Below, one piece after another: positions 2,238 through 64,000 of a DNA stretch of 64,000 bases. Within the stretch, counting starts at the first letter, position 1, and each line of letters opens with the position of its first letter. Made by a program: the position numbers and the translations under genes. The stretch is from Escherichia phage FFH2, in sequence record KJ190158. One strand, 5' to 3'. The notes below the pieces were generated by a model. The model ran no database searches, was not told the DNA's origin, and saw only the letters and a program-made list of their open reading frames with translations.

Positions 2238-3056
2238 TTGAGCAAGAAAGAGTCTAACGACAAATACTACACAAACCCTGAGTATGCAGAATATCTTGTT
2301 GGTAGAGTAAAAGACAAGTATGGGAATTGTGCATACGTTGAGCCTTCTGCTGGAAGGGGTTCTTTTTCAAAACTATTTTCAGAGATACTGTCGTACGATC
2401 TAGTACCAGATCCTGAATTTGAAGGACCAACACCGTGCATTCAGGCAAACTTCTTGGAGGTGCATCCCAAGGCAGATGTCTTCATAGGTAACCCACCATT
2501 TGGCAAGAATTCATCTTTAGCTTGCAAATTCTTTAACCATTGTGCATCGTTGCTAGATCTTGGCGGGGCTATAGCCTTCATCTTGCCACGGACATTTGAA
2601 AAAATATTTTTTGCAAACAAACTGGACATGTCTATGCACCTTGTCTACAGCGAAAGGTGCCCTAAGAACTCGTTTTTACTTAATGGCAAACCTTATGACG
2701 TGCCATGTGTTTTCCAAATTTGGGAGAAAAAGGCGTGCAATAGGGATCCTGTAGAGATTGGAGAGAATAGGTTATTTTCTTTTAGCACACCAGATGACTA
2801 CGACTTCTGTGTAAGACGTGTTGGGTATAATGCTGGAAAAGTATTGGGTGATGATGACCCAAAATCTAAAGAATCTACATATTTCATAAAATCTTTAGTT
2901 GACGGTGTTGACAGAGTGTTTGCTGAATGCTATTCTTCTTTTCAAGAAGAAGCAGGTAAGACTGCTGGAATGAAGAGTATAGGCAAGAAAGAACTACAAT
3001 ACATTTTGGAGACCCGGTATGATCAAAAGTATAGACTTGACCAAAGAACTTACTGA
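2238..3056 (+). CDS. DNA N6-adenine methyltransferase (motif I before motif IV, NPPF type)
   Basis: VEPSAGRGSF (SAM-binding motif I) followed by FIGNPPFG (motif IV). The start is placed at TTG 2238, with GGAGG 5 nt upstream, because the longer ORF start at 2208 lies inside the terminator hairpin. Confidence 0.75.
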   Translation: MSKKESNDKYYTNPEYAEYLVGRVKDKYGNCAYVEPSAGRGSFSKLFSEILSYDLVPDPEFEGPTPCIQANFLEVHPKADVFIGNPPFGKNSSLACKFFNHCASLLDLGGAIAFILPRTFEKIFFANKLDMSMHLVYSERCPKNSFLLNGKPYDVPCVFQIWEKKACNRDPVEIGENRLFSFSTPDDYDFCVRRVGYNAGKVLGDDDPKSKESTYFIKSLVDGVDRVFAECYSSFQEEAGKTAGMKSIGKKELQYILETRYDQKYRLDQRTY

Positions 3057-3477
3057 TGCAAAAGCTTTTGGTGAGACAGCAGTACAAAGGGGGCAGGCGA
3101 TGGGACTGGCACTACCTTTCGTCTTAAAAGAGCACTTTACAGATTTTCAACTTATCAAGGGTGATAAGGGAATGCTTATCCTGGAGCATAAGTTGAGTAA
3201 GAAACGCTATAAAGTTGTTTTTAATTCTAAAGCTCCAACAAAACTGGGATTCAGAACTTACAATCTTAACCCATCCTACACTAAGGGTGTTGGAAGGGTA
3301 GAACAACAGCATTTCAGTGCCAGAGCTTCTTTAGCCCCTTTGATGCTAAATTTCTCAGGGGTGGCTTTAGGATACCTTGATAAGAAAAGAGTTCTTCATG
3401 TCCGTTTCACAGACTTTGTAACGCTCTTAGCTAACAACGAGGTTGATGAAAAGGGACGTGTAAAAACAAACTTCTAA
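3019..3477 (+). CDS. hypothetical protein
   Basis: 152-aa ORF with GGAGA upstream of the ATG. It overlaps the methyltransferase 3' end. No recognisable motif. Confidence 0.55.
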   Translation: MIKSIDLTKELTDAKAFGETAVQRGQAMGLALPFVLKEHFTDFQLIKGDKGMLILEHKLSKKRYKVVFNSKAPTKLGFRTYNLNPSYTKGVGRVEQQHFSARASLAPLMLNFSGVALGYLDKKRVLHVRFTDFVTLLANNEVDEKGRVKTNF

Positions 3478-17101: not shown

Positions 17102-17635
17102 ATGACTTGTGCTAGAAAACCTGATGAACAACGTAACGCCTACGATGAGTATGTGACACCGGAGTGGTGTGCAGAAGGGCTGTATGACCTTATTCCGTTC
17201 CCAGAAGACTGGACCTACTTAGAGCCTTGCAGGAATAGTGCCTCAGGTGTGTTCTACTCCCGTATGCCGTTAGGATCTGCATGGGGAGAAATCCAAGAAG
17301 GTGTTGACTATCTGAATACAGAATACAACCATGTTGACTGTATTATCACCAACCCACCATACAGCTTGGCTCGTGAGTTTGTAGACAAGGCGTTGAAAGA
17401 TGCTGACGTAGTTATTATGCTTTTACGTCTTAATTTTCTGGAAAGCAAAGCCAGATTTGAATGGTGGCTTGATAATGCACCTACCACTGTGATCACAATA
17501 TCTAAGCGTCCATCATTTCAATCAAATGGTAGAACTGACGGGCAAGCATATGCATATTTTGTATGGGACAAGAAAAACCGTCTAGACTTGCCGCCATTTA
17601 TGTGGTTGGCACCACCAGAGGCAGATTTGAAATGA
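17102..17635 (+). CDS. DNA N6-adenine methyltransferase (small, NPPY type)
   Basis: IITNPPYSLAREF is motif IV (NPPY). An upstream DEYVTPEW and LEPCRNSASGVF resemble the SAM pocket. Confidence 0.75.
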   Translation: MTCARKPDEQRNAYDEYVTPEWCAEGLYDLIPFPEDWTYLEPCRNSASGVFYSRMPLGSAWGEIQEGVDYLNTEYNHVDCIITNPPYSLAREFVDKALKDADVVIMLLRLNFLESKARFEWWLDNAPTTVITISKRPSFQSNGRTDGQAYAYFVWDKKNRLDLPPFMWLAPPEADLK

Positions 17636-18625: not shown

Positions 18626-18859
18626 ATGAAAGTTAAATTTCTTACAGATTTAGGGTACCCTTCCTTGGTTGACTGCATTGGTAAAATTGTGGAAGCAAAA
18701 CGGCTATCTGCAAACGATAATGTTGTCATGGTTAAGGGAAAAGATTTATTAGCTGCAGGTGCAGAGTCTGGCAGGATCTCTCCTGACTATACATATTACT
18801 TATCTTTAAGTAATCTACCAGAACGAGGCGGCAAAGGCCTTGAAGTTGTGGAGGAGTGA
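18626..18859 (+). CDS. small paralogue family A member (MKVKxL...VEVVEE)
   Basis: MKVKFLTD...KGKDLLAAGAE...LEVVEE. It shares its N-terminal, central G-x-D-L-x-AAGA and C-terminal motifs with 22289-22513 and 22503-22757. Confidence 0.65.
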   Translation: MKVKFLTDLGYPSLVDCIGKIVEAKRLSANDNVVMVKGKDLLAAGAESGRISPDYTYYLSLSNLPERGGKGLEVVEE

Positions 18860-18864
18860 CAGGT

Positions 18865-19401
18865 ATGCTTCTGATTAACTGGGAAGACCTCTATGGGGAC
18901 AAAGACCCTGTTGCGTTTGTTGATCGTAGATGGAGATACACTGAAGAACAACTGGCTGCAAAAAATTTAACTGCGAAACGCAGAAAGATCATCCAGTGCA
19001 AGTACAAATACGCACAATTTGCTGCAAAAGTGTCTCCACAAATCGAGAGTTTTGTACTTAAATTGTATGACGAATACCTCAAGTTCAAATTGGATTTTGT
19101 ACAGGTGTACCGTGCACAGGTACGCCCAGATACCAACATATGTAGATGGAAGGTTGTTTGTGACGGTAAAGATTTGCCGCTCAGCTTGACAATTGAGTGG
19201 CGTTATGGGTATCATGAGTGTGGTCTGTATGATACTTGGGATGTCATTGTAGATCCTGCTAAGTACCTGAACACAGAGGAGCTGGAATATATCAATAAGG
19301 TTATTCTCGATATGTTTTTCAGATACACCCGTGAAAACTCTGAGAAAGAACGGGATGATTTTCTTGACACCATCAGCAACCATCTGCAGTATACAATTTA
19401 A
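18865..19401 (+). CDS. hypothetical protein
   Basis: ATG 18865 is preceded by GGAGGAG. Confidence 0.55.
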   Translation: MLLINWEDLYGDKDPVAFVDRRWRYTEEQLAAKNLTAKRRKIIQCKYKYAQFAAKVSPQIESFVLKLYDEYLKFKLDFVQVYRAQVRPDTNICRWKVVCDGKDLPLSLTIEWRYGYHECGLYDTWDVIVDPAKYLNTEELEYINKVILDMFFRYTRENSEKERDDFLDTISNHLQYTI

Positions 19402-52383: not shown

Positions 52384-54807
52384 ATGGTAATAAATAATAC
52401 GACGAACACCTTCATCGTACCACCCACGCTTCACCATTTGGTGGTGCATGAGTATCCCAACTAAGTCACACAACGATGCACCACCATTTTGTTGGTATGC
52501 ATTAAGTAAAGAGTGTTTAGATCGGGTCCAGATGGCATGACCATCAAAAGAGTAGATAAACTTCTTACCCGTTGCTTCCCAGAATTTCTCCAGATCCTCT
52601 TTACGGCCCTTAAGACCAGGGTTGGCATCCCAAAGCGCATCGATTACCCTTTGTCCCAACTCTGGAGAGATGTCCAGCATATCTGCAACTTTATCTTTTT
52701 GTGCCCCGTACATAACCCCATACGTGATAGGTTTACCGTCGTTACGGGACACCTCTCTGCCTGCTACTTTTGTATATGCCTCAGCATTGTTTTGGTGTGC
52801 GTCTCCGTTACTTACAACATCATAATACAAGCCGTTGTCGAACTCAAAGGCACCCCAAGCCCCGATAAGCTGCTCTAAGTTGGACCCGTCAATACCGATC
52901 TCAAAGTATCCAGGAGGAACACCCCACAGACTACGCATCTCTTTACCCATAACCACTTTAGGAGATGGTTTAGGCATGTTTGCACAAATACTGTGTTTCT
53001 GTCTGGAAGTGTTTGTTAATCCAGAGCTTTTAGCAGGAAGCTTATGGTCAATCTTCAAACGTGGGTGATTAAGAAGACCAGTGTCAACCTTATCCTCCTT
53101 GATTGGATCAAGTACCGATCTGCGGTTTCGCAATGATAACCATAAGACGATATCTTTAGCCATCTCTCCGTTCAATTTTTCAAGATTCGGACACAGGTGT
53201 CCAAACGTATCTTTCAGTTGCGGAGAAGTAATAAGTGCCCTAGCTTTTCTACGTATTTTCCCGAATACTTCCTTTTTAATCCTTTCGGAGTTAGGAAAGC
53301 TTCGGAACTTGTGCACTGTTGTCTGAAACTTAGCATCAGTTTTGTTCCAGAAGTTGATAATTAGGTCACAATACTCTGACTCTAAAAGCTCGTCCATGTA
53401 TGCATATACTCGTGCATCAACATCTGCATCAGGTAGAGCTTTCTTCTTGCTGTCTTTAGTTACATCCTTAGTTCTCCACATTGTCGGAAGCCAACCAGCA
53501 CTGATCAGGTATCGCTTAATGTCGTCCTGATTGCTGATTTTCATAGGTATCTTGCAGTCAGGCATTCGCTTCTGCTGCAGATCGCTTATTGCCTGATCCA
53601 TCAGCTCTTTAGGCAAAGGTTGTGGTGTGGAGGTGCCCTTAATATAGCCTCTCAAGAAATCAGCCATCTTATCGTGGTCTTTGCAGCCCATCTCTTCACA
53701 CCATTTTATCCCCATTTTACTGACATCTCCTGTGGAGGTAAATGCTCGCTTAGGTGGGGCTTTGAACTCTAAAGCGCTCATGTCTACAGGATAGCCAAGC
53801 TTATCTTTTAACCATTTCCAACCATTATTGGAGATTGTCCCATCTTGGTTAAACGGCTTTTCAGGGAACTTGGGCCGCTGAGACATTGACAGCTCTTTTA
53901 AAGGTAGTTGTGGTTCAACACGATCAGCTATTTCTTTCATCCACGCATCGCAACGGTCACGTAAAGCAATAGCCCCGTCTATGTCGAAATACACACCCTG
54001 ACGGGCCTGCAGCTCCATCAGGAAGTGCTGCAGCATGCCTCGACGTAGTGCGTTCTTCCAGGTGATCTTCTTGAACCCTTTCGGCTTCTCTTTGGCTGGA
54101 TCGTACATAAAGTTCTGCATGTCAGATTTGCCGTAGAATACACCTTTTGATTCCGCTACCAGCTCTTTCCAGAGCAGCTCCTGGATGATAACGTCCTCGA
54201 ATACACGATCCACATACTTCCACAACGGAAGATCGCGCCAGTCATCAATTTGAACTTTCTGGTTACCAAGGGCGTAGCCCCATGCCATAAGGCCGTGAGG
54301 ACCAACAGGCTGCATTTTCTTAGTAACCGGGTTGAATACAGAGTCCGGACAACCTTTTGGTAAAGGGCGATCAGGCCACAAGATTCGGCTCATCGCCAAC
54401 GTATCAAACAGGTTAACCTGGTGGTCGTTGATAGTCCCCATACATTTAGGATCACGGAACATATCAAAATGAATACCGGATAATCTCTCCATCAGCATAA
54501 AGTCATAACTGTAGCAGTTATGGCAGTTCAAAGCTGTTGGTGACCAGTCGGAATTGCCTGTAAGCCAACCCTCCAACTCCGAAAAATCTGCTATGCGAAC
54601 TTCAAAATCCTTATAAAGAGTTTTCTTTGCCAGAATAAAGTTCTTAGCCTTCTCTATATCCTCCTCGGAGTAGTGTGTGCGGTCATTTAGAGGAAGGAAC
54701 AGCATAAAACGGTTCTTATTCAGCTCTTTAAACAGGCCGCAATGATAATAAAGATCTGGGTCTTCCAAAAGCCCTGAGGCCTCCAGATCGAAGCACCAAT
54801 TACTCAT
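52384..54807 (-). CDS. DNA polymerase (family A, T7 gp5-like), exon 1
   Basis: N-terminal 3'-5' exonuclease motif WCFDLEASGL (DxE). Polymerase motifs follow (DGSNLEQL region, KPITYGVMYG motif B-like). As a plain ORF it stops one codon after ...IIYYH, inside motif C. Confidence 0.9.
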
Positions 54808-55538
54808 ACTGTCTCCTCCTGTGTCTTCTCAGCATTCTTTCTTGCAGCTATTGCATCGTCCCTGTTCTTGAAATACCCAAGGCATTTCCTTTTACCATCT
54901 ACATGAATTCTGGCTACCCATCTTTCATGGGTTTTATCCCAATTCACCCCTGAGCAACCGCTGGTGTTATTATACTGCACGGCTCTTCCACTCTTGTGCG
55001 AAAAACCATTATCTTCGAAGAACTTTCTTGCCCACTCTGCCTCTTCAAAAGTTCTGTACTGGCCTAGCCAGACCCTTTCACCTACAGAGTCTGTGCCTTG
55101 AGCTACCCATGCCCCTCTTTCTTCAGAATAGTGCACCCCGACCCTGCCAGATTTGTTGTTGCTACGAGGTATCTTGCAACTTTTCTTTTTGTTATCTGTA
55201 GGTTCGAGTAGTTGCAAATTATGAATACTGTTGTCAGCCACACCACCTGTTTCCCTTATCTCCTTGATGTGGTCAACCTCATACCCTTCCGGTACAGGAC
55301 CGTTAAACATTTCCCAGATTATAACGTGGGCACCTTTAGTGCAATGCTTTCCTAGACTAACCACAGGCCTGCCATCAGCATCTTGCCCCTTGTCAGCTCT
55401 GGAGCCTGCTGAAGTTTTAACATATCCTACACCGCTGCCTGCCAGAATGTCTATCTTCCAAAAAAGATTTTGACCGTCATACTCCAATATTTCTGACCAC
55501 AAGTGATTAGCTACACAGTGATCTCTGAACTCGTTCAT
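54804..55538 (-). CDS. free-standing HNH endonuclease with two AP2 DNA-binding domains
   Basis: EVDHIKEI...NSIHNLQLLEPTDNKKKS is an HNH motif. Two AP2-like repeats follow (SGRVGVHYSEERGAWVAQ...LGQYRTFEEAEWARK and SGCSGVNWDKTHERWVARI...LGYFKNRDDAIAARK). Confidence 0.8.
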   Translation of the reverse strand: MNEFRDHCVANHLWSEILEYDGQNLFWKIDILAGSGVGYVKTSAGSRADKGQDADGRPVVSLGKHCTKGAHVIIWEMFNGPVPEGYEVDHIKEIRETGGVADNSIHNLQLLEPTDNKKKSCKIPRSNNKSGRVGVHYSEERGAWVAQGTDSVGERVWLGQYRTFEEAEWARKFFEDNGFSHKSGRAVQYNNTSGCSGVNWDKTHERWVARIHVDGKRKCLGYFKNRDDAIAARKNAEKTQEETV

Positions 55539-55596
55539 AAAGTGTTCTCCTTAAAGGGGAGGCGGTTGTACTACCCCTCCCACTCTTTGTTAAACA

Positions 55597-57675
55597 TTAA
55601 AAAGGTGTTTCATCATCCTCAAAACCAGGGACCGGATCAGAGGATGGATCATCGTATTGGAGGTCTTCCTGCGTGTCAATAGGCTTGACAGTGGGTGTTA
55701 CAACCTTATCAGCCACAACCTTGCCCATAGGTGTTTCTACAACTGCATGCTCTTGATCCTCAAACATAGCCTGAGGTCTCCAAACAACCTCCCCACCTTC
55801 TCCGTCTGTAAACATTTGCATTTCTTTGTCCCAGTACCAATTACTGGCATCATGGAACTTACCTGTGTGCGGGTCCATAACTAAAGTGTCAGCAATACCT
55901 AAAGTTTTTGCTGGACGGTTCTTAAGACCTACCAGACGGACACGTCCACGAGAACGATCCACCATTTCTTCGGCCTCGACACCTATGACTACCCAACTCA
56001 ACTGTTCAAGCCCAGCCGATCCTCGCAAATTCTCTTTTCGCACAGGATACCAGAAAGGTAACGGGTTACCATCTTTGTCCTTAGGAGGCACAATCTCTGT
56101 ACGTTTGAGGTGAGCGATCACCAAGATAAACACGTTAAACTGCTTACAAAACGCAGCCAGTTGGGTCATAGCCATGTCCAGTTCTTTTCGCTCATCCTTA
56201 ACATTAAGCCCTGAAATTACCATGGACAGGTGATCCAGCACAATATAACGACAATAGTACAGGCAAACCATTTGCTTAAGCTTGGTAATCAACTCGTCCA
56301 CCGGAATAGACCCGAAATGTTTGAACACTTTGATTTTTCCAGCTTTTGCCCATGATTGGTGAATCTCTGCGTGTTCTTGATCAGTTAAAAACTGGCTAGG
56401 ATCTTCAACAAACTCTTTAACATCAAACCCTAACTGGTTTGCATACAAGGAGTTAATTGCTTCCTCTGGATCCTCCTCAAGATGGATCATGCATAGACGA
56501 TCATCCTCTTCATAGTCATCGGCCTTCGGGCATGTCGGGTCCATTAAGTATCTTGCAATACAGTGTTCCAGTTTTTTAGCCACGGTTGTTTTACCGCCGC
56601 CTGATGGACCTGTAAGCATTACGAGTGTCCCTTTGTGCAAGCCTTTTAGCATTTTTTGCAGTTTTGGGAACTCTGCACTGATATCTACCCCGTTGGAAGT
56701 CTTTTTCCGCAAAGACTCGATAGAGAAGTCTTCTAAATCCGACACAGCATCAGGCACATATTTAACAGGGTGCCGGAACATGTTGACAATATCTTCCAGC
56801 TTTTTAGCCTTCAGCATGTCTCGGATATCTTTTACACCGTCAGGGTCATTTACTTCACCAGGGTATTCTACGTGGTAAACGTTATCAGCCATCAAAAATG
56901 CTGCGATATTGTGCGTGGCCTCAACACCTTTAATGACGTGTTTTTGCTTCTCTACCTCGTTAGCTGCATCGTTATCCATTGCCAGCACAACTGTTCCATA
57001 GCTACGGATAAACTTCTCATTGTTTGCAAAAGTATCTACTGCGTTTGCACATCCACAGTTAATTCCAACAAAAGGCAGGCAGGGTTTTCCTGCCAGATCA
57101 CCACCGTTGATAACTGCGTCGATCCCGTCCTGGACCTCTTTAGCCCACTGCTTCACCTTTGCCGGGGCTTTAGCGTTGGTGAGAATCCCTTTTACTTGTA
57201 TCTGATATGCAGCCTGCCATGCTGCAATAACATCACCTTCTCCCTCACAAACGTTAATCTGCTTACGGTTGTTGGAAGATGCACACAGCTTTTGACCAAA
57301 CATCTGGGAGTTGGCCTTTACGATGCCAACAACGGAGAAATGGCCCCTTTGCTCTTTAGGAATAGTCCAGTCACGCTTTTTGAAACCAGACAGATTTCCG
57401 TAGCGGTCGTAATATGGGAAATATGTTGCAGTGACTGTCACACCGTCTTCTTGGGACAATGCTGATCGCACACCAAAATATTGTGCAGCCATCAGACCGA
57501 TATTTTGTTGTGGGACAGGGACAATTTTAGTATTTTCTAAAACAGTCTCTACAGTTTCAACTTCTTTTTCATCACGATAGTCTCGTTTCACACTTCCCCC
57601 ACTTTTATACTTAGTTGCTTTCGGGTTTGGCTCACCGAAACGGTTGTATGCAGATGCCATAAATTTACTTCCCAT
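55597..57675 (-). CDS. bifunctional primase-helicase (T7 gp4-like) without an N-terminal zinc ribbon
   Basis: TOPRIM (NVCEGEGDVIAA ... VLAMDNDAAN), Walker A (LTGPSGGGKTT) and Walker B (YIVLDHLS). Acidic C-terminal tail ...GFEDDETPF. There is no Cys in the first ~128 residues. Confidence 0.9.
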   Translation of the reverse strand: MGSKFMASAYNRFGEPNPKATKYKSGGSVKRDYRDEKEVETVETVLENTKIVPVPQQNIGLMAAQYFGVRSALSQEDGVTVTATYFPYYDRYGNLSGFKKRDWTIPKEQRGHFSVVGIVKANSQMFGQKLCASSNNRKQINVCEGEGDVIAAWQAAYQIQVKGILTNAKAPAKVKQWAKEVQDGIDAVINGGDLAGKPCLPFVGINCGCANAVDTFANNEKFIRSYGTVVLAMDNDAANEVEKQKHVIKGVEATHNIAAFLMADNVYHVEYPGEVNDPDGVKDIRDMLKAKKLEDIVNMFRHPVKYVPDAVSDLEDFSIESLRKKTSNGVDISAEFPKLQKMLKGLHKGTLVMLTGPSGGGKTTVAKKLEHCIARYLMDPTCPKADDYEEDDRLCMIHLEEDPEEAINSLYANQLGFDVKEFVEDPSQFLTDQEHAEIHQSWAKAGKIKVFKHFGSIPVDELITKLKQMVCLYYCRYIVLDHLSMVISGLNVKDERKELDMAMTQLAAFCKQFNVFILVIAHLKRTEIVPPKDKDGNPLPFWYPVRKENLRGSAGLEQLSWVVIGVEAEEMVDRSRGRVRLVGLKNRPAKTLGIADTLVMDPHTGKFHDASNWYWDKEMQMFTDGEGGEVVWRPQAMFEDQEHAVVETPMGKVVADKVVTPTVKPIDTQEDLQYDDPSSDPVPGFEDDETPF

Positions 57676-58429
57676 TAATTCTGCTCCTTACTACAGGCTC
57701 GTTTGCTAAGAATACGGCTTTTGCCCAGCCACGTGGTGTGAGGCTTCGGATCATCTTCGTTCTTGCACTCTTTCCACCCAGCTTGGCGTGTTGCATGGAA
57801 TACCCGCTAACCGCGTCAACTATTTGCGGGACAGGTTTTGTGGCCGGGATTATAAATCCATTACCTATCCAGCCGCAAGTTATTTTTGGATAGGCATCAC
57901 GTGGAGCTATAAATTCAGGAAACCAGGGGTTTACATCATCCTCCGGTAAATACCCGCCATAGTCAGAAGGGTGAAAACGGTAATCAGGTTTGCGCCACAG
58001 TGTGGACATAACACCCACAGGATTCTCTACATGCCACGGGCAATCGTAAATCTCTCCCAACTCTTCTGCAACCCGAGCATCCTTTACAGCATTAATCTGG
58101 ATCAGCGGGTCCTTAGCCAGCTTCTTCTTAAAGTGTGCAGCACCTGACACCGCTAAGTGGGTGCACGGAGGAAATGCAAGAACAAAGTCCGGAGCGGGGT
58201 ACATGCAGAAAGTTTCCTGAGGGAACCATGGATCAATCCAATAATCTACATAGTGAATATTTGGATGATCGGTGATCACCTCTGCATAACTGCCGTGGTC
58301 AGCACCTTCTGCATTAAAGCACAGGCACAGGTACCCAGCTTTTGCCCAGTCAATAACTGCACCACCAGACCCGTCAAATAGGCTCCACACAACACCTTTG
58401 TGGTAGTGTTCTTTGTAGATGAATTTCAA
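57665..58429 (-). CDS. DNA (cytosine-5) methyltransferase-like enzyme
   Basis: LFDGSGG (motif I FxGxG), FPPCTHLAVSG (motif IV PC), HVENPVG (motif VI ENV-like) and IRSLTPRGWAKAV (R-x-L-T-P-R). The start is set at TTG 58429 (AGGAGA upstream) because the longer ORF starts inside the terminator. Confidence 0.7.
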   Translation of the reverse strand: MKFIYKEHYHKGVVWSLFDGSGGAVIDWAKAGYLCLCFNAEGADHGSYAEVITDHPNIHYVDYWIDPWFPQETFCMYPAPDFVLAFPPCTHLAVSGAAHFKKKLAKDPLIQINAVKDARVAEELGEIYDCPWHVENPVGVMSTLWRKPDYRFHPSDYGGYLPEDDVNPWFPEFIAPRDAYPKITCGWIGNGFIIPATKPVPQIVDAVSGYSMQHAKLGGKSARTKMIRSLTPRGWAKAVFLANEPVVRSRINGK

Positions 58430-58445
58430 TTTGCTGTCTCCTAAT

Positions 58446-58474
58446 GCAAAAAGCCCCACCCTTTCGGGCAGGGC
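58446..58474 (-). terminator. rho-independent terminator (same stem-loop as at 46733)
   Basis: Minus strand: GCCCTGCCC-gaaa-GGGTGGGGC followed by TTTTT. Confidence 0.75.
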
Positions 58475-58480
58475 CTAATG

Positions 58481-58963
58481 TTAAACCCGGATACCTATTG
58501 TATACTCGGTGGATACCAATGTCAAATCTAAATTTAAAATTTCTTGCATCTCATAGTATGCGTCCAGGGTGAGATACATTTCCCCATCCTTTTCTACATA
58601 TTTGTCCAAGTGCTTGAGGCATTTCGGATAACTATCAAGTGCAGCTTTCAGGCACTCAAACTCTGTGCTGTTGATGAACCCTTCCATCTTGGCTACCCGT
58701 TCTGGGGTAACGATAGCACTGTAGTGAGATTTAGCTTCCTGAATGCAATGCGTCCAAGCATCAACCTTCTCTTCGAAAAGCCCGAAGAACTTCTTTTTGG
58801 TGAGCTTCAGATTCTTCAAGTGCTTAAGCACTCGGTTGCCGATTACAGCCACATCACGAAACTTAAGGATCACCTTGTCGATATCCTCGCGGCCTATTTT
58901 CACAAAGCAGGCTTCGCACATTTCAGGGGCTGCGTAACCTACTTTCCACATAAAATCTGACAT
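58481..58963 (-). CDS. hypothetical protein
   Basis: 160-aa ORF with an AAGGAGAAGG SD. Confidence 0.6.
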   Translation of the reverse strand: MSDFMWKVGYAAPEMCEACFVKIGREDIDKVILKFRDVAVIGNRVLKHLKNLKLTKKKFFGLFEEKVDAWTHCIQEAKSHYSAIVTPERVAKMEGFINSTEFECLKAALDSYPKCLKHLDKYVEKDGEMYLTLDAYYEMQEILNLDLTLVSTEYTIGIRV

Positions 58964-58975
58964 ACCGCCTTCTCC

Positions 58976-59371
58976 TTATTCCTTAAAAGCTATGATATCA
59001 TAGGAACTTGCAGATGATTCTGGTGAAGAATGACTCCAGTCCAGGTCATCAGAATAGTCAGCGTACTGTGCGCCACTACGCAGTTTGTATTTTACCCACT
59101 TACCTGGTGCAGGGTTTTCACCACCTTCCCATACTTCCCAGCCTTCTGGCAGGCCGTCCTGAGCGTAGTCATCCACCTCACTAATGATCTTAGGGTTTGG
59201 CACCAAGATCCCCGCAGGCTCTTCCTTCCGGATAAGTGTCCACACAGCGTAGGTGTCTGAGCAGGCGCATGATAGTAAAGTATATCCACTATTCAGAACT
59301 TCTGCAAGCTCTTTTTCAGCATCTTCCAATTTGGTTAAGTGGTATTGGATAATCTTCACACCTGTAATCAT
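58976..59371 (-). CDS. hypothetical protein
   Basis: 131-aa ORF whose start overlaps the upstream stop. Confidence 0.55.
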   Translation of the reverse strand: MITGVKIIQYHLTKLEDAEKELAEVLNSGYTLLSCACSDTYAVWTLIRKEEPAGILVPNPKIISEVDDYAQDGLPEGWEVWEGGENPAPGKWVKYKLRSGAQYADYSDDLDWSHSSPESSASSYDIIAFKE

Positions 59372-59676
59372 CAGAAACCTCCCACTTCTTCAGCAAATGC
59401 AGCTGCTGTCGTCGCTGCATCCAGATATGACTCTAGTTCACGGGCTGCACGTTTGTAAATTGAGTGGCGCATATCGTTTGGCAGTTGGTGGAAGTCCACC
59501 TCTTCACCGTTGTGGTAAACATGCACATCAGTGATTTGTCTAAATCCATAATAGTCAACATCAGAATCACGGCACTCTGGGTCTGGCAACTGGACAACTG
59601 CCTGAGCTTCCACAGTGAACATATCGTCAAGTTCGAAATCGATTTCAAAAGTGTATGGTTTATAACGTTTCATCAT
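59371..59676 (-). CDS. hypothetical protein
   Basis: 101-aa ORF in the co-oriented array. Confidence 0.55.
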   Translation of the reverse strand: MMKRYKPYTFEIDFELDDMFTVEAQAVVQLPDPECRDSDVDYYGFRQITDVHVYHNGEEVDFHQLPNDMRHSIYKRAARELESYLDAATTAAAFAEEVGGF

Positions 59677-59689
59677 TTGATTGTACTCT

Positions 59690-61015
59690 TTATTGATCAG
59701 ACTTATCTTTCGTAATTAAGGTCGGAGTAAGTTTGTAATAGCGGAAGCCACCACCACCTTGCCAGTTTACAGACTTAGAAATACCCCCTTGATCTTCACC
59801 ATCGATCACTTTTTCCAAGCGCGGAATAATATGGGTATGACAATGATCACCTAGCTCGATTGAGATCCAACGTCTTTTCATCTTGTGAGCTACAGCAGCA
59901 GTAGTTCCCGAACCACCGAATGAATCCAATACCAAATCGCCTTCTAGCGTACACATTTCGAAAATCCGCTTCAAAAGAGCTTCTGGTTTTTTCCCATTTT
60001 TGAAACTAACGCCGCCTTCATTTGCTATTCCATTCCAACTAATGTCTGTCCAAACATCAGTTATTAGTTCTGCAGGTTGCATCTCACCGTCAATTTCCAA
60101 AAGTCTATTGGAGTAAAAGACCATTTGCCTACCATTTGCGATATAAAATCCTTCAACATCCTCATTTGGATGTACATAAACCTTATTCCTATCTCTCTTT
60201 GACTTCTCGATAGTTTCTTTTCTCTTTATTTTAGCTCCACCACCAATTGCAACAGATTGAAATACACGTTCTGCATTATCAATTGCGAATTGTGCTAATT
60301 CATCATCGAATGTATCAGGCAGTTTTTTCTTGGCTTCTTTTGCATCTTTATAGCCATTGGCCTTTGCAAACGCATCGGCAATACCGCACCACGTCCAATT
60401 TTTATAATGGTCGTCCGGGTTTAATAAGTATTTGTTATACCCTGTATCATACCCTTTAGGTATATAGATTTTGTTAAGCGGTTTCTGGGTGCGATCTTTT
60501 GCATATACAAGCAAAAAGTTTGCTGTGGAGAAAACTGTAGCTCCTGTTGCCTTAAATCCTGAAGGGGAGTTTGTGGTCATCGATATGGTATTTAACTGAT
60601 TTGCACGACCAAAAATCTCGTCCATCAAAACTTTTAAATACGCCATTTCGCAATCATCTAAGTGAACGAATATTACCCCATCATCACTTAGAAGATTACG
60701 AATTATTTCTAACCTATCCCTCATTAAGCCCAGCCAAATGGAATGCTCCAGGCTATCATCGTAGTGCTCAAAAGCCCTTCCGGTATTGAATGGTGGGTCG
60801 ATGTAAACACACTTCACTTTGCCTGTATACTCTTGCTCTAGCGCCTTCAATGCTAATAAGTTATCTCCAAAAATCAGTTTATTATCAAAAATATCGTTTT
60901 CGGTCACTTTCTGGCTGCGGTAAGACTTGCTCGAATCTTCTAACAAAATGTGCGGCTCTAGCTTTTTGCGCTCGTTTTTACCTATCCAGGTAAGTTCTAA
61001 TTTAGTTTTGCTCAT
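59690..61015 (-). CDS. DNA methyltransferase, N6/N4 class (beta-type, type III Mod-like), orphan
   Basis: VKCVYIDPPFNTG (motif IV DPPF) lies upstream of VLDSFGGSGTTAAVAHKMKRRWISIE (motif I). No Res or other endonuclease partner is nearby. Confidence 0.85.
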   Translation of the reverse strand: MSKTKLELTWIGKNERKKLEPHILLEDSSKSYRSQKVTENDIFDNKLIFGDNLLALKALEQEYTGKVKCVYIDPPFNTGRAFEHYDDSLEHSIWLGLMRDRLEIIRNLLSDDGVIFVHLDDCEMAYLKVLMDEIFGRANQLNTISMTTNSPSGFKATGATVFSTANFLLVYAKDRTQKPLNKIYIPKGYDTGYNKYLLNPDDHYKNWTWCGIADAFAKANGYKDAKEAKKKLPDTFDDELAQFAIDNAERVFQSVAIGGGAKIKRKETIEKSKRDRNKVYVHPNEDVEGFYIANGRQMVFYSNRLLEIDGEMQPAELITDVWTDISWNGIANEGGVSFKNGKKPEALLKRIFEMCTLEGDLVLDSFGGSGTTAAVAHKMKRRWISIELGDHCHTHIIPRLEKVIDGEDQGGISKSVNWQGGGGFRYYKLTPTLITKDKSDQ

Positions 61016-61076
61016 CGTTTGGTGCTCTCCTTAGTTTTTGTGGGGAGGAGTGCCTCCCCTTTATACTCACATCTTA

Positions 61077-61418
61077 CTACTCAAGGTCTTCAGAGTCAAG
61101 CTCAAAAAGAATCAAACTGTGCATGCCTGCAGAGAGATCAACACACCCTGCAACAATAAGGGTCTGATAGTAAGGTTCAGCACCCTCAATGTCTTCGTTA
61201 AAATCTACAACAAGATAGTCACCTTTGTTAAAGGTGTATTTGTCCGATGTAAACGCAAAACCTGCCCAGTCCCCGACTGCAGGATCTTTATCAGTCACCT
61301 TTGTTAGCAGCAGGTCTTTTTCACGAGATCTTTTAGTAAAATCGTGAATCACAACATCCTTCTCTTCAGGAGTTGGATTGCCACACACGTAGTTAACTAT
61401 ATTTCTCCACAAACTCAT
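61077..61418 (-). CDS. hypothetical protein
   Basis: 113-aa ORF whose start overlaps the helicase stop. Confidence 0.55.
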   Translation of the reverse strand: MSLWRNIVNYVCGNPTPEEKDVVIHDFTKRSREKDLLLTKVTDKDPAVGDWAGFAFTSDKYTFNKGDYLVVDFNEDIEGAEPYYQTLIVAGCVDLSAGMHSLILFELDSEDLE

Positions 61419-62785
61419 ACGTCCCCCTCTTCTGCTCTGGTTTCAAAATCTTTCCTGACAATTTTGTCTAAGTCAGGGAATGTTGTATTGTAAAACTCTA
61501 CGACTCGCGGGTCAACAATAATGTCAACTTCTCTTAGTGGACGCAACAAGTTTATTCCTTGTATTGTCTTAACTCTACTCAAAGCGACATACGTCATCCC
61601 AGGAGAGAAAGCTCCGTTCTTTCCAAGGTCTAGGTTGTAACAATCTAGCGTAAGTCCTTGACTTTTATGAGATGTTACGGCGTACCCAGATTTCAGAGGA
61701 AGTTGCTTGTATGACCCAATCACTACCCTCTCTATAAACTTCTCCATCTTCCTTTCTGCAATGTTGTATCTTTGAGAGGGCTTATACTCGTTATTCTCCC
61801 ACAACCTCTGCTCTATGTCAACCTGTGTTCCATCTTCAAGCTCTACCACCACCGCCTTGTTCTTAAATTTAACAATTGTGGCACGTGTTCCGTTAACATA
61901 ATAAGGTACTTTGTGCGTCGGGTCAACATCGTTGGCGGTTATCATAACTTTCATGCCAATTTTCAACTTCATCTCCTGCTCAACTGGCAGGGTGGAGGGA
62001 AACTTACCCTTCATTTCACCAGTGTATACCTTCTCTGGGGCGTTGATGGCATCATAGAACCTTCTGTTTACTTCCTCTGCTTGTTTGTTGGTGGCGCAAA
62101 TTGTGAGAGCATCTGTTGGTACACCACCTTTGTAACAGCGAGCATTAAGTTCTGCTACAACCTCTTTTATGCGACGACCCTCACGAACACAGTTGAGCAT
62201 TGTGGCAAATCGAATAGACTCCTGTCGGAACTGATCTATTAGGGCTATGTTGTGGAGGTCAAGCTCTTTCCAAGATTCGGTGTAGCAACACAGGTCCGTA
62301 TGGTAGAAGTTGAAGTAGGCTTCCTTCTCCATAGAAGAGACAACAGGAGGTGCCTGGTAAAAATCGCCAAACAATATGACCTGTATGCCTCCGAAAGGTT
62401 TGTCATTTTTTCGAAGGAAGCGGAGTTTCCTATCCATCTCTATAAACTTATCAGCACGGATCATAGAGATTTCATCGATAATTAGGATGGTAAATGCCTT
62501 GCTTTTCAAAGGCTTTGCTGTTTTTGCCCTTATTGCGGTCCAGTCCGACTCCATGCTCACACCTGCTGCAAGATCGAATGTTCGGTGTGCTGTTGCTCCA
62601 TTAACGTTTAAAGCGGCTACCCCTGTCGGGGCAACCGTTATGCAAGAGTCTCCATACATTGACTGGATCATGTTGATGAGATACGTCTTCCCACAACCTG
62701 CAGGTCCTGAAACGAAGACATTCTCACCGCTCATGATTGCAATGAGGGCAGCATCTGTGCCTACGTCATACTGCCCTTTTTCCAT
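61415..62785 (-). CDS. SF1B helicase (Pif1/RecD/Dda-like)
   Basis: Walker A (VSGPAGCGKTYL), Walker B (ILIIDEISMI), and the C-terminal TSHKSQGLT and YVALSRVK motifs typical of the Pif1/RecD family. Confidence 0.85.
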   Translation of the reverse strand: MEKGQYDVGTDAALIAIMSGENVFVSGPAGCGKTYLINMIQSMYGDSCITVAPTGVAALNVNGATAHRTFDLAAGVSMESDWTAIRAKTAKPLKSKAFTILIIDEISMIRADKFIEMDRKLRFLRKNDKPFGGIQVILFGDFYQAPPVVSSMEKEAYFNFYHTDLCCYTESWKELDLHNIALIDQFRQESIRFATMLNCVREGRRIKEVVAELNARCYKGGVPTDALTICATNKQAEEVNRRFYDAINAPEKVYTGEMKGKFPSTLPVEQEMKLKIGMKVMITANDVDPTHKVPYYVNGTRATIVKFKNKAVVVELEDGTQVDIEQRLWENNEYKPSQRYNIAERKMEKFIERVVIGSYKQLPLKSGYAVTSHKSQGLTLDCYNLDLGKNGAFSPGMTYVALSRVKTIQGINLLRPLREVDIIVDPRVVEFYNTTFPDLDKIVRKDFETRAEEGDV

Positions 62786-63990
62786 TACGCCTCCTCGTAG
62801 ATAATGTCGATGATGTTACCATCACGGTCAACTACGTATTCAATCGGATCGCCATCTTTGCGTGATTCCGGTGCTGCTACGATTTCGTAGCGGCATGCAC
62901 GGCACTTAGCACTGTTGTGTTGGTATGGCACACTAACCACATCCGCAGGGTCAACCATAACCATCATTACAGTGCCATAGCCCGCTGCATACTCTTTGCT
63001 GGCGCAGTGCAGGCCATAAGAACACGCAGCTTCCGGATCATCTTCTACAAAGTTACGAGGCATGGACACAAAAGCACCCTGGTATTGTGGAACTTTACCG
63101 CTGTGCCAATCCACCCACCTGCTCCCGTTAAACTGAACCCCCTTATAGCAAATGATTCGACCATCTTCTGCAACCTGGATGTCATTAGCCTGCATGAAAT
63201 CGTAGAGCATGTTCACAGATTTTGCAGACGGGTTGCGTAGCAGACGGACAAGGAATTTAACATATCGGTCGTCCAGTGTTCCATCTACATAATCTTCCTC
63301 AATTTTCTTTGCAATGGTGGATCGCATCTCTACACCGTAGTAGTAGAGCTTACCATCTTTCATGATCAGGTTGTCTGCAAGTGTGGTGAACTCATTCTTG
63401 CGTTCCAGCCAGACAAGGATTTCACCAATTGCCTCGTCATATTCCTGAACAGAGATATGATCGAAGACTTTCTGGTAAACTTCCTCACTTTCGCTGCGGC
63501 GAATTTCAAAAATGCCTTCGTTGCAGGTGATCTGGAGGAGTTCCCCGCAAATAACTACCAAAGGCTCGATGCTTCGAGTCTGTTGCTGAGACACACTGCT
63601 CACCACCTCCAGCACCGGATCTTTGACTTCTACTAAAGGTTCTTCTGACTTGATTGCCACTCCAGTGAACCCCACACCGTGAACAACACACAGTGGGTAT
63701 ACCACACCCCAACGTTTAACGGAACCTTCCCCTAAGTCTAAGATCATGGCGTACTTACCGTTATCTTCCAGCCCATATCGAAATAAACGGGCCTCTTCAC
63801 GGGTTTCAAAATCCTCACGGGTGTAGCAGACGCTGTCACGGTCAGGATCGAACAGCTCTGGGGCACCTACTGCCAGTGTCCAGGTTGTGTCACCTTTCTC
63901 AATGGCACATGTGAAACCCTTCTTCTCAAGTTCTGCACGGCGGTCGCGTGCTTCTTTACGAGTTTTGAAATGTTCGTAGATGAAAATCAT
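62785..63990 (-). CDS. hypothetical protein (401 aa)
   Basis: GGAGA SD. Two N-terminal repeats (REEARDRRAELEKKGFTCAIEKG... and REEARLFRYGLEDNGKYAMILDLG...). The C-terminal region has CSYGLHCAS and KCRACRYEIV. Function unknown. Confidence 0.6.
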   Translation of the reverse strand: MIFIYEHFKTRKEARDRRAELEKKGFTCAIEKGDTTWTLAVGAPELFDPDRDSVCYTREDFETREEARLFRYGLEDNGKYAMILDLGEGSVKRWGVVYPLCVVHGVGFTGVAIKSEEPLVEVKDPVLEVVSSVSQQQTRSIEPLVVICGELLQITCNEGIFEIRRSESEEVYQKVFDHISVQEYDEAIGEILVWLERKNEFTTLADNLIMKDGKLYYYGVEMRSTIAKKIEEDYVDGTLDDRYVKFLVRLLRNPSAKSVNMLYDFMQANDIQVAEDGRIICYKGVQFNGSRWVDWHSGKVPQYQGAFVSMPRNFVEDDPEAACSYGLHCASKEYAAGYGTVMMVMVDPADVVSVPYQHNSAKCRACRYEIVAAPESRKDGDPIEYVVDRDGNIIDIIYEEA

Positions 63991-64000
63991 CTTGGTCTCC

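Follow-up and report, generated by a model that had tools for sequence, protein, structure and literature searches.

Why should a phage carry four DNA methyltransferase genes and no restriction endonuclease gene beside any of them? We addressed this question for a stretch of 64,000 nucleotides from Escherichia phage FFH2 (sequence record KJ190158; the whole stretch is called the window below), for which a first-pass annotation made from the sequence alone had listed four orphan methyltransferases (here MTases 1 to 4). The best explanation of the whole, which we hold to be probable, is that these are four stand-alone DNA methyltransferase genes that give the phage a narrow, site-specific marking of its DNA. 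The window comes from a Vequintavirus (rV5-like) phage of Escherichia coli: its first 12 kb and last 10 kb are 95–99% identical at the nucleotide level to more than 100 Vequintavirus E. coli phage genomes, and it aligns in five collinear blocks, at 93–98% nucleotide identity, with the BASEL phage Bas51 (WalterGehring, MZ501111), the phage in which the GATC and GTAC methylation and the retron triggering discussed below were studied experimentally. The two phages are separate isolates, with insertions and deletions mostly at homing-endonuclease open reading frames (ORFs), and the Bas51 GenBank record annotates the same four methyltransferases in the same order and context, with none further in its 140.7 kb. 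Protein identities between the window and Bas51 are 266/272 for MTase 1, 177/177 for MTase 2, 252/254 for MTase 3 and 432/441 for MTase 4.

ORFs and translations confirmed the four genes at the coordinates and with the catalytic motifs first reported for them (Table 1), and all four have strong PHROG matches (E from 2e-61 to 2e-128), MTase 4 alone also passing a Pfam threshold (PF01555, 1.7e-41). For MTases 1 to 3, single-sequence searches of the PDB gave nothing useful, and family profiles and structure models were required. The 'three chemistries' attributed to the set were an overcount: there are three architectures (gamma-class twice, beta-class and C5) and two predicted chemistries (N6-methyladenine three times, 5-methylcytosine once), because the DPPF beta-class Type III Mod-like enzyme predicts N6-adenine methylation. 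All four genes are located within replication and nucleotide-metabolism gene blocks. MTases 1 to 3 are conserved across the genus, each in ∼115–119 Vequintavirus records, while MTase 4 is found in ∼86 phage records at at least 80% identity, that is, in part of the genus only, its next phage relatives being ∼40% identical.

Table 1. Methyltransferase genes of the window and the segment shared with an E. coli chromosomal island
Feature	Coordinates	Strand	Description	Bas51 orthologue
MTase 1	2238-3056	+	272 aa (amino acids); gamma-class, TaqI-like NPPF N6-adenine methyltransferase	bas51_0200
MTase 2	17102-17635	+	177 aa; NPPY N6-adenine methyltransferase, Dam-like function (Gm6ATC)	bas51_0176
MTase 3	57665-58429	-	254 aa; compact, C5-cytosine methyltransferase-like	bas51_0074 (annotated 'Dcm-like')
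MTase 4	59690-61015	-	441 aa; beta-class DPPF Type III Mod homologue, C-terminal ∼127 aa absent	bas51_0070
Segment shared with the E. coli SNF2-Mod-Res island	59681-61028	-	5′ 1.33 kb of the mod gene only; 3′ end carries a frameshifting deletion	

The statement that no restriction endonuclease gene lies beside any of the four also stood. Their immediate neighbours are ORFs of 67–205 amino acids and a DnaQ-like exonuclease subunit, and none of them matched a restriction nuclease in Pfam, PHROGs or PADLOC, although the small ORFs of no recognised function (3019-3477 and 58481-58963 among them) could formally still hide hard-to-recognise endonucleases. The neighbours of bacterial MTase 1 homologues (199 amino acids in Poseidonibacter, 171 amino acids in a metagenome contig) are related neither to one another nor to the phage ORF 3019-3477.

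The methylation of GATC can be traced to a single gene of the set. Bas51 mutants that escape the retrons Asa1 and Squ1 carry D69G, D79G or T83P in its "N6 adenine methyltransferase" (PMC12548924). Among the three annotated Bas51 adenine methyltransferases, residues D69, D79 and T83 are all present only in bas51_0176, and the retron-trigger gene is therefore the orthologue of MTase 2. Published nanopore counts of N6-methyladenine (6mA) in wild-type Bas51 are 1405 at GATC, 509 at GTAC and 576 elsewhere, and in the T83P mutant 35, 511 and 349, respectively (PMC12548924). The Bas51 genome, which we reassembled from fetched pieces, holds 703 GATC sites, or 1406 adenines, and 258 GTAC sites, or 516 adenines, so that both motifs are essentially fully methylated (1405/1406 and 509/516, the latter ∼99%). 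Since the GATC count falls from 1405 to 35 in T83P, GATC methylation in Bas51 depends on the MTase 2 orthologue even in a dam+ host; and since the host has Dam and phage DNA is nevertheless almost unmethylated without the phage enzyme, the latter supplies capacity rather than a new specificity. Self-methylation, as the first-pass annotation expected it, is thus real in Bas51, whose four enzymes are 97.8–100% identical to those of the window, and the nanopore calling of virion DNA that it proposed as a check had already been published for this near-identical phage, with 6mA at GATC and GTAC (PMC12548924).

The same study shows that the GATC enzyme has a price, which the first-pass annotation overlooked: besides triggering retrons Asa1 and Squ1, and being in that sense also a liability, it is toxic when expressed alone (PMC12548924). 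On a retron-free strain, the Bas51 GATC enzyme mutants reach 1-4e10 plaque-forming units (PFU)/ml, as against 4.6-6.4e10 PFU/ml for the wild type (PMC12548924).

MTase 2 resembles the Dam enzymes of T4/T2, P1 and the T1-type phages (PF05869/TIGR01712) in that it methylates phage DNA to Gm6ATC and has no partner nuclease, but its sequence does not belong to the alpha-class Dam family. Its motifs (YVTPE, LEPC..SG, TNPPYS), invariant in the family alignment, follow the gamma-class, TaqI-like order; beyond a match to phrog_799 (5e-67), its family profile aligns with motifs X to IV of M.TaqI (7e-5), and its 177 amino acids leave no room for a separate target-recognition domain, none being recognisable. 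No match to PF02086, the alpha-class Dam family, was found at E up to 0.1, and the scores against the phage Dam models stayed below threshold (PF05869, 19.2 bits with a cut-off of 28.1; TIGR01712, 16.1 with a cut-off of 97). Judged by its sequence, MTase 2 is a minimal gamma-type enzyme that is Dam-like in function yet outside the classical Dam family. An ORF 1.2 kb downstream of its gene (18856-19401, + strand) encodes a 95% amino acid identical orthologue of a Bas51 'putative glycosidase'.

A second part of the explanation concerns MTase 4 and its origin. In the protein IDPPFN comes first, close to the N-terminus, and FGGSGTT lies close to the C-terminus; this beta-class order, together with the DPPF motif and a central target-recognition domain, identifies it as a Mod subunit. 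It matches the PADLOC model MTase_III (PDLC03636) at 4.5e-203 over model positions 2-444 of 575, and its sequence matches in the PDB are the Helicobacter pylori Mod (6k0w) and the EcoP15I Mod, with which, as with the E. coli Mod described next, it shares the beta-class order, DPPF and PF01555. It is not a full-length Mod, since the phage protein stops at residue 441, compared with 535–665 amino acids in bacterial Mods.

A closely related mod gene is carried by 24–29 of 5426 complete E. coli genomes, at 93.7–94.6% nucleotide identity to the phage segment, and the remainder of the window has no other match to the island in which this gene resides. The phage gene is ∼94.5% identical to E. coli mod in nucleotides and 95.2% in amino acids over the N-terminal 438 residues of the 568-residue Mod, the target-recognition region included, with 46 synonymous and 18 nonsynonymous codon differences on the protein alignment. 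At the phage 3′ junction an 11-nucleotide net deletion shifts the frame onto a TAA, and the homology runs ∼18 nucleotides further to end at the next phage ORF, so that relative to the island the phage has lost the last ∼127 residues of Mod and has neither a Res nor an SNF2 partner. Because of the ∼94% nucleotide identity to a chromosomal mod and the frameshifting deletion that truncates the phage copy, MTase 4 looks like a recent capture from a host.

In E. coli 2014C-3011 the island lies beside tRNA-Sec and encodes, in order, a helix-turn-helix (HTH) protein, an SNF2 helicase, Abi_2, a hypothetical protein, Mod (568 amino acids) and Res (with a ResIII domain); the leading HTH protein is labelled 'mads1' by NCBI, and integrase remnants lie next to the tRNA gene. 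E. coli SMN013SH2 is another strain with the island. An order of DrmD-like SNF2, variable inserts (Abi_2, Old-like or AbiU-like), Type III Mod and Type III Res recurs among bacteria (locus L090, 4129-13478, which is that of E. coli 2014C-3011, and loci L008, L009, L012, L047 and L086). Among the 15 bacterial loci compared, Mod is intact, at 535–665 amino acids, in 14 and split into two ORFs in one (L064); an ORF of 884–994 amino acids lies downstream of Mod in all 15, with an REase_III match in each of the three tested, and a DrmD-like SNF2 helicase is usually upstream. The mod gene is the only gene common to the window and two further loci, in contig31 of Catenovulum agarivorans DS-2 (L007, 93% nucleotide identity) and in a gammaproteobacterial metagenome-assembled genome (L008, 87.5%). 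Both have a full-length Mod behind the same upstream genes, and the complete one, L008, has a Res-sized ORF downstream, which suggests that the island moves widely among gammaproteobacteria or that these two assemblies are contaminated. We did not equate the bacterial SNF2-Mod-Res loci with ARMADA II of E. coli O157, whose published ArmC is a YprA/DUF1998 helicase-nuclease and not a Res.

On the phage side, none of the ORFs flanking MTase 4 matched ResIII or REase_III in Pfam, PHROGs or PADLOC, and the 456-amino-acid helicase upstream is a RecD-like superfamily 1 protein rather than a Res subunit; the Mod of the phage is therefore an orphan and does not form part of a Type III system. Directly downstream lies an ORF of 101 amino acids (59371-59676, - strand) with a weak match to phrog_1573, 'DNA methyltransferase' (1.5e-5). 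We considered whether this or another flanking ORF could be the missing C-terminus of a split Mod and rejected the idea, as none has similarity to the bacterial Mod C-terminus. We infer that MTase 4 is active and protective, and the truncation may free the enzyme from control by Res and the host system. That it is a recently captured, truncated host mod (the first 438 codons, with the target-recognition domain kept) which pre-methylates phage DNA to evade exactly that island is an attractive reading that we put forward tentatively, at slightly less than even chances.

Methylation might, on the other hand, be mainly a matter of housekeeping, with full GATC methylation sparing replicated DNA from host MutH and SeqA, or with methyl marks timing phage gene expression. 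This would fit the near absence of GATC methylation when the phage enzyme is lost despite host Dam, the placement of the genes in replication and nucleotide-metabolism modules, and the presence of MTases 1 to 3 throughout the genus. Yet loss of GATC methylation barely affects the titre, GTAC is no host regulatory mark, and MTase 4, copied recently from the mod gene of a defence system, points to counter-defence; we therefore regard a housekeeping role as unlikely, while giving it more weight than any of the other alternatives.

The second fully methylated motif, GTAC, must come from either MTase 1 or MTase 4, because E. coli K-12 is not known to have a GTAC methyltransferase and mutation of MTase 2 leaves the GTAC mark intact. 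By elimination, we infer that MTase 1 is the source of GTm6AC. We favour it because complete methylation of a 4-bp palindrome is Type II behaviour, whereas the sites of Type III Mods are asymmetric, unlike the palindrome GTAC. A further reason is M.HpyAXII, a characterised GTm6AC enzyme that is likewise TaqI-like and gamma-class, with its catalytic Asn at position 87 (PMC2588503), close to the catalytic Asn85 of MTase 1. Among the 4-bp palindromes of the window, judged by a second-order Markov model, only CTAG (observed-to-expected ratio 0.58) is more under-represented than GTAC (123 observed, ratio 0.65), and GATC shows no depletion (358 observed, ratio 1.08).

The features of MTase 1 itself agree with a DNA enzyme of this type. 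Its motifs come in the gamma-class order X (YYTNP), I (EPSAGRG) and IV (GNPPFG), with positions invariant in the family alignment, and it matches phrog_5172 (2.4e-128) and, over its full length, the PADLOC Type II methyltransferase model MTase_II (PDLC03255, 1.2e-33). An AlphaFold2 model with a predicted local distance difference test (pLDDT) score of 91.8 shows the two-domain gamma fold, a Rossmann catalytic domain followed by a C-terminal target-recognition domain, and 229–250 of its 272 residues, across both domains, align with M.BseCI, M.TaqI, CamA and MmeI. MTase 1 thus shares with M.TaqI and M.BseCI the layout of motifs X, I (EPSAGxG) and IV (NPPF), followed by a C-terminal domain superposable on the target-recognition domains of both; it differs from the Type II gamma enzymes M.TaqI, M.BseCI and M.HpyAXII in its size (272 amino acids versus 331–585) and in having no partner nuclease. 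Its sequence similarity is too low for Pfam, and as the Pfam search returned no match to PF26055, a precomputed label on some homologues, we left that family unnamed.

If MTase 1 were instead an RNA N6-adenine methyltransferase of the METTL5/Erm type, the GTAC mark would have to come from the Type III Mod-like MTase 4. The catalytic domain does find its best solved-structure matches, in sequence and in fold, in Ta1320, PH1948, METTL5 and ErmC′, some homologues are labelled "predicted RNA methylase" by JGI, and one matches Pfam RrnaAD. It is the whole protein, C-terminal domain included, that aligns with the DNA enzymes listed above, however, and the full-length PADLOC match, the precedent of M.HpyAXII and the palindromic site all argue in the same direction, so that we find this possibility improbable, somewhat more so than a housekeeping role.

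For MTase 3 the evidence is structural and comparative. The C5 motifs I (LFDGSGG), IV (FPPC) and VI (VENP) are present, and across 27 diverse homologues P87, P88, C89, E135, N136 and P137 never vary and the motif I glycine hardly does. The protein matches phrog_757 (7e-87), and its AlphaFold2 model (pLDDT 90.2) has the C5-methyltransferase fold, with DNMT3B, DNMT3A, M.HhaI, M.MpeI and M.HaeIII as top matches; the top 50 Foldseek matches are all DNMT3 catalytic domains, with E values down to 6e-7. No Pfam match, PF00145 included, was found at E up to 0.1, but a few homologues carry a precomputed PF00145 match. A metagenome-scale search placed 3530 proteins in the family, and ∼1500 phage records hold a member, among them the 'dcm' of T1-like phages. 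In its overall fold and in motifs I, IV (PC) and VI (ENV-like), MTase 3 resembles the DNMT3 catalytic domain and T1-like phage 'Dcm' proteins such as that of Tls; from compact C5 enzymes it is set apart by its 254 amino acids, its minimal target-recognition region and its scores below the PF00145 threshold. We treated it as a divergent, compact branch of the C5-cytosine methyltransferases, and it most likely makes 5-methylcytosine. The missing PF00145 match and the unusual shortness could also suit a protein that is not a plain DNA 5-methylcytosine enzyme, either a DNMT2-like tRNA methyltransferase or one that transfers a larger group, such as carboxymethyl. Against this, the top fold matches are DNA enzymes, the family occurs widely among phages, T1-like ones included, where it is annotated as Dcm, and the restriction sensitivity of these phages in the BASEL phenotyping speaks against bulky hypermodification, leaving such an activity only a slim chance.

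Neither MTase 1 nor MTase 3 has a close DNA relative in E. coli genomes. MTase 1 starts with the TTG at 2238, four nucleotides past GGAGG, and MTase 3 with the TTG at 58429, after AGGAG, both as annotated in Bas51. Directly upstream of each ribosome-binding site lies a GC-rich hairpin with a T-run (2200-2228, terminator-like, for MTase 1 and 58445-58475 for MTase 3), so transcription from the genes upstream may either continue into these two genes or be kept out of them.

Taken as a mechanism, the four enzymes would be made while phage DNA is being copied, as their location in replication and nucleotide-metabolism blocks leads us to suppose, and each would mark the fresh copies at a short motif specific to it. 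MTase 2 methylates GATC, as shown for the identical Bas51 protein, without which host Dam accounted for no more than 35 methylated adenines out of 1406 at GATC; MTase 1 would methylate GTAC to completion; MTase 3 would make 5-methylcytosine at a motif of its own; and MTase 4, working alone, would methylate adenine at the asymmetric site that the host Type III system recognises, letting the phage pass the SNF2-Mod-Res island. The net effect would be narrow protection, against MboI/DpnII-like, RsaI/PabI-like and cognate Type III enzymes rather than against restriction at large, bought at the cost of a GATC enzyme that is toxic alone and sets off retron defences.

Several points weigh against this account. 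The window is not Bas51, and there are 6, 2 and 9 residue differences, respectively, between its MTases 1, 3 and 4 and their Bas51 counterparts. The closest solved relatives of MTase 1, by sequence and catalytic-domain fold, are METTL5-type RNA methyltransferases, and GTAC methylation could belong to MTase 4 instead. The titres give no sign that complete methylation of GATC benefits the phage in dam+ hosts, the null mutants being near wild type. The activities of MTases 3 and 4 are predicted only, and the effect of the E. coli island on these phages is hypothetical; 5-methylcytosine or N4-methylcytosine calling has been reported for no Vequintavirus, and the published Bas51 nanopore analysis gives 6mA calls only (PMC12548924).

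The breadth of protection was the part of the first-pass annotation that fared worst. Among the systems tested in the BASEL phenotyping, EcoRI (GAATTC), EcoRV (GATATC), EcoKI and EcoP1I (AGACC) have recognition sites that are neither GATC nor GTAC. The BASEL phages were isolated on a strain without Mrr, McrBC and DpnI-like methyl-dependent enzymes. That the four enzymes methylate the genome heavily enough for broad protection from restriction, with marks also read by phage nucleases or the packaging machinery, is the least probable alternative of all and largely refuted for breadth: there are indeed four methyltransferases without partner nucleases and two fully methylated 4-bp motifs in Bas51, but the Vequintavirinae proved "exceptionally susceptible" to the restriction-modification systems tested (types I, II and III) and were found without "any effective protection" (PMC8594841), ARMADA II and Druantia III still restrict these phages (PMC13463889), and the methylated adenines of Bas51 number ∼2500 of roughly 80,000. 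A role of the marks in packaging or for phage nucleases found no support either, at least for GATC, because mutants null for GATC methylation reach the high titres given above, and packaging is therefore independent of that mark.

As first written, the finding of four orphan methyltransferases was already known. Orphan methyltransferases are common in phages, and more than 100 deposited genomes carry annotations of these four. For the phi92-like Escherichia phage BME3, "four CDSs" (coding sequences) for putative orphan methyltransferases of three classes have been described and read as anti-restriction (PMC12210895); that phage belongs to another genus, the homologues that it has are only ∼47–54% identical, and no phage outside Vequintavirus shares MTase 4. 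Dam-type methylation has been reported for a Certrevirus on the basis of ClaI digestion, the rV5 genome paper is silent on methylation, and our literature search found no Vequintavirus methylome paper. Two modest additions had no counterpart in the literature searched: the gene that acts as retron trigger, and the derivation of MTase 4, in truncated form, from a host.

Two observations concern the window and its relatives more generally. A stretch of ∼750 bp within 54000-64000 is lost from many relatives, and the Dcm-like gene was ruled out as this stretch, MTase 3 being present in 114 records. The variable stretch is assigned instead to the ORF at 54804-55538 (- strand), which encodes 244 amino acids, is a 'putative homing endonuclease' in Bas51 and abuts the DNA polymerase gene, there a two-piece join. 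This ORF appears to be a mobile insertion and is probably what many close relatives lack. Dozens of GenBank 'Campylobacter phage' records (MG0656xx, e.g. H2, H22 and H45; host C. jejuni) are 97–98% identical to E. coli rV5-like phages in these regions, and are probably mislabelled or contaminant assemblies.

For the biology of these phages, MTase 2 offers a concrete case of a counter-defence gene that is itself sensed by another defence, the retrons. Beyond this, the findings yield predictions that are sharp and cheap to test, in a group of phages with therapeutic relevance: a GTm6AC enzyme, a C5 activity with its motif, and a Mod-based bypass of one E. coli island. If the last of these is true, the truncated, host-derived Mod would make the phage invisible to that one Type III-like island, in a small minority of E. 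coli.

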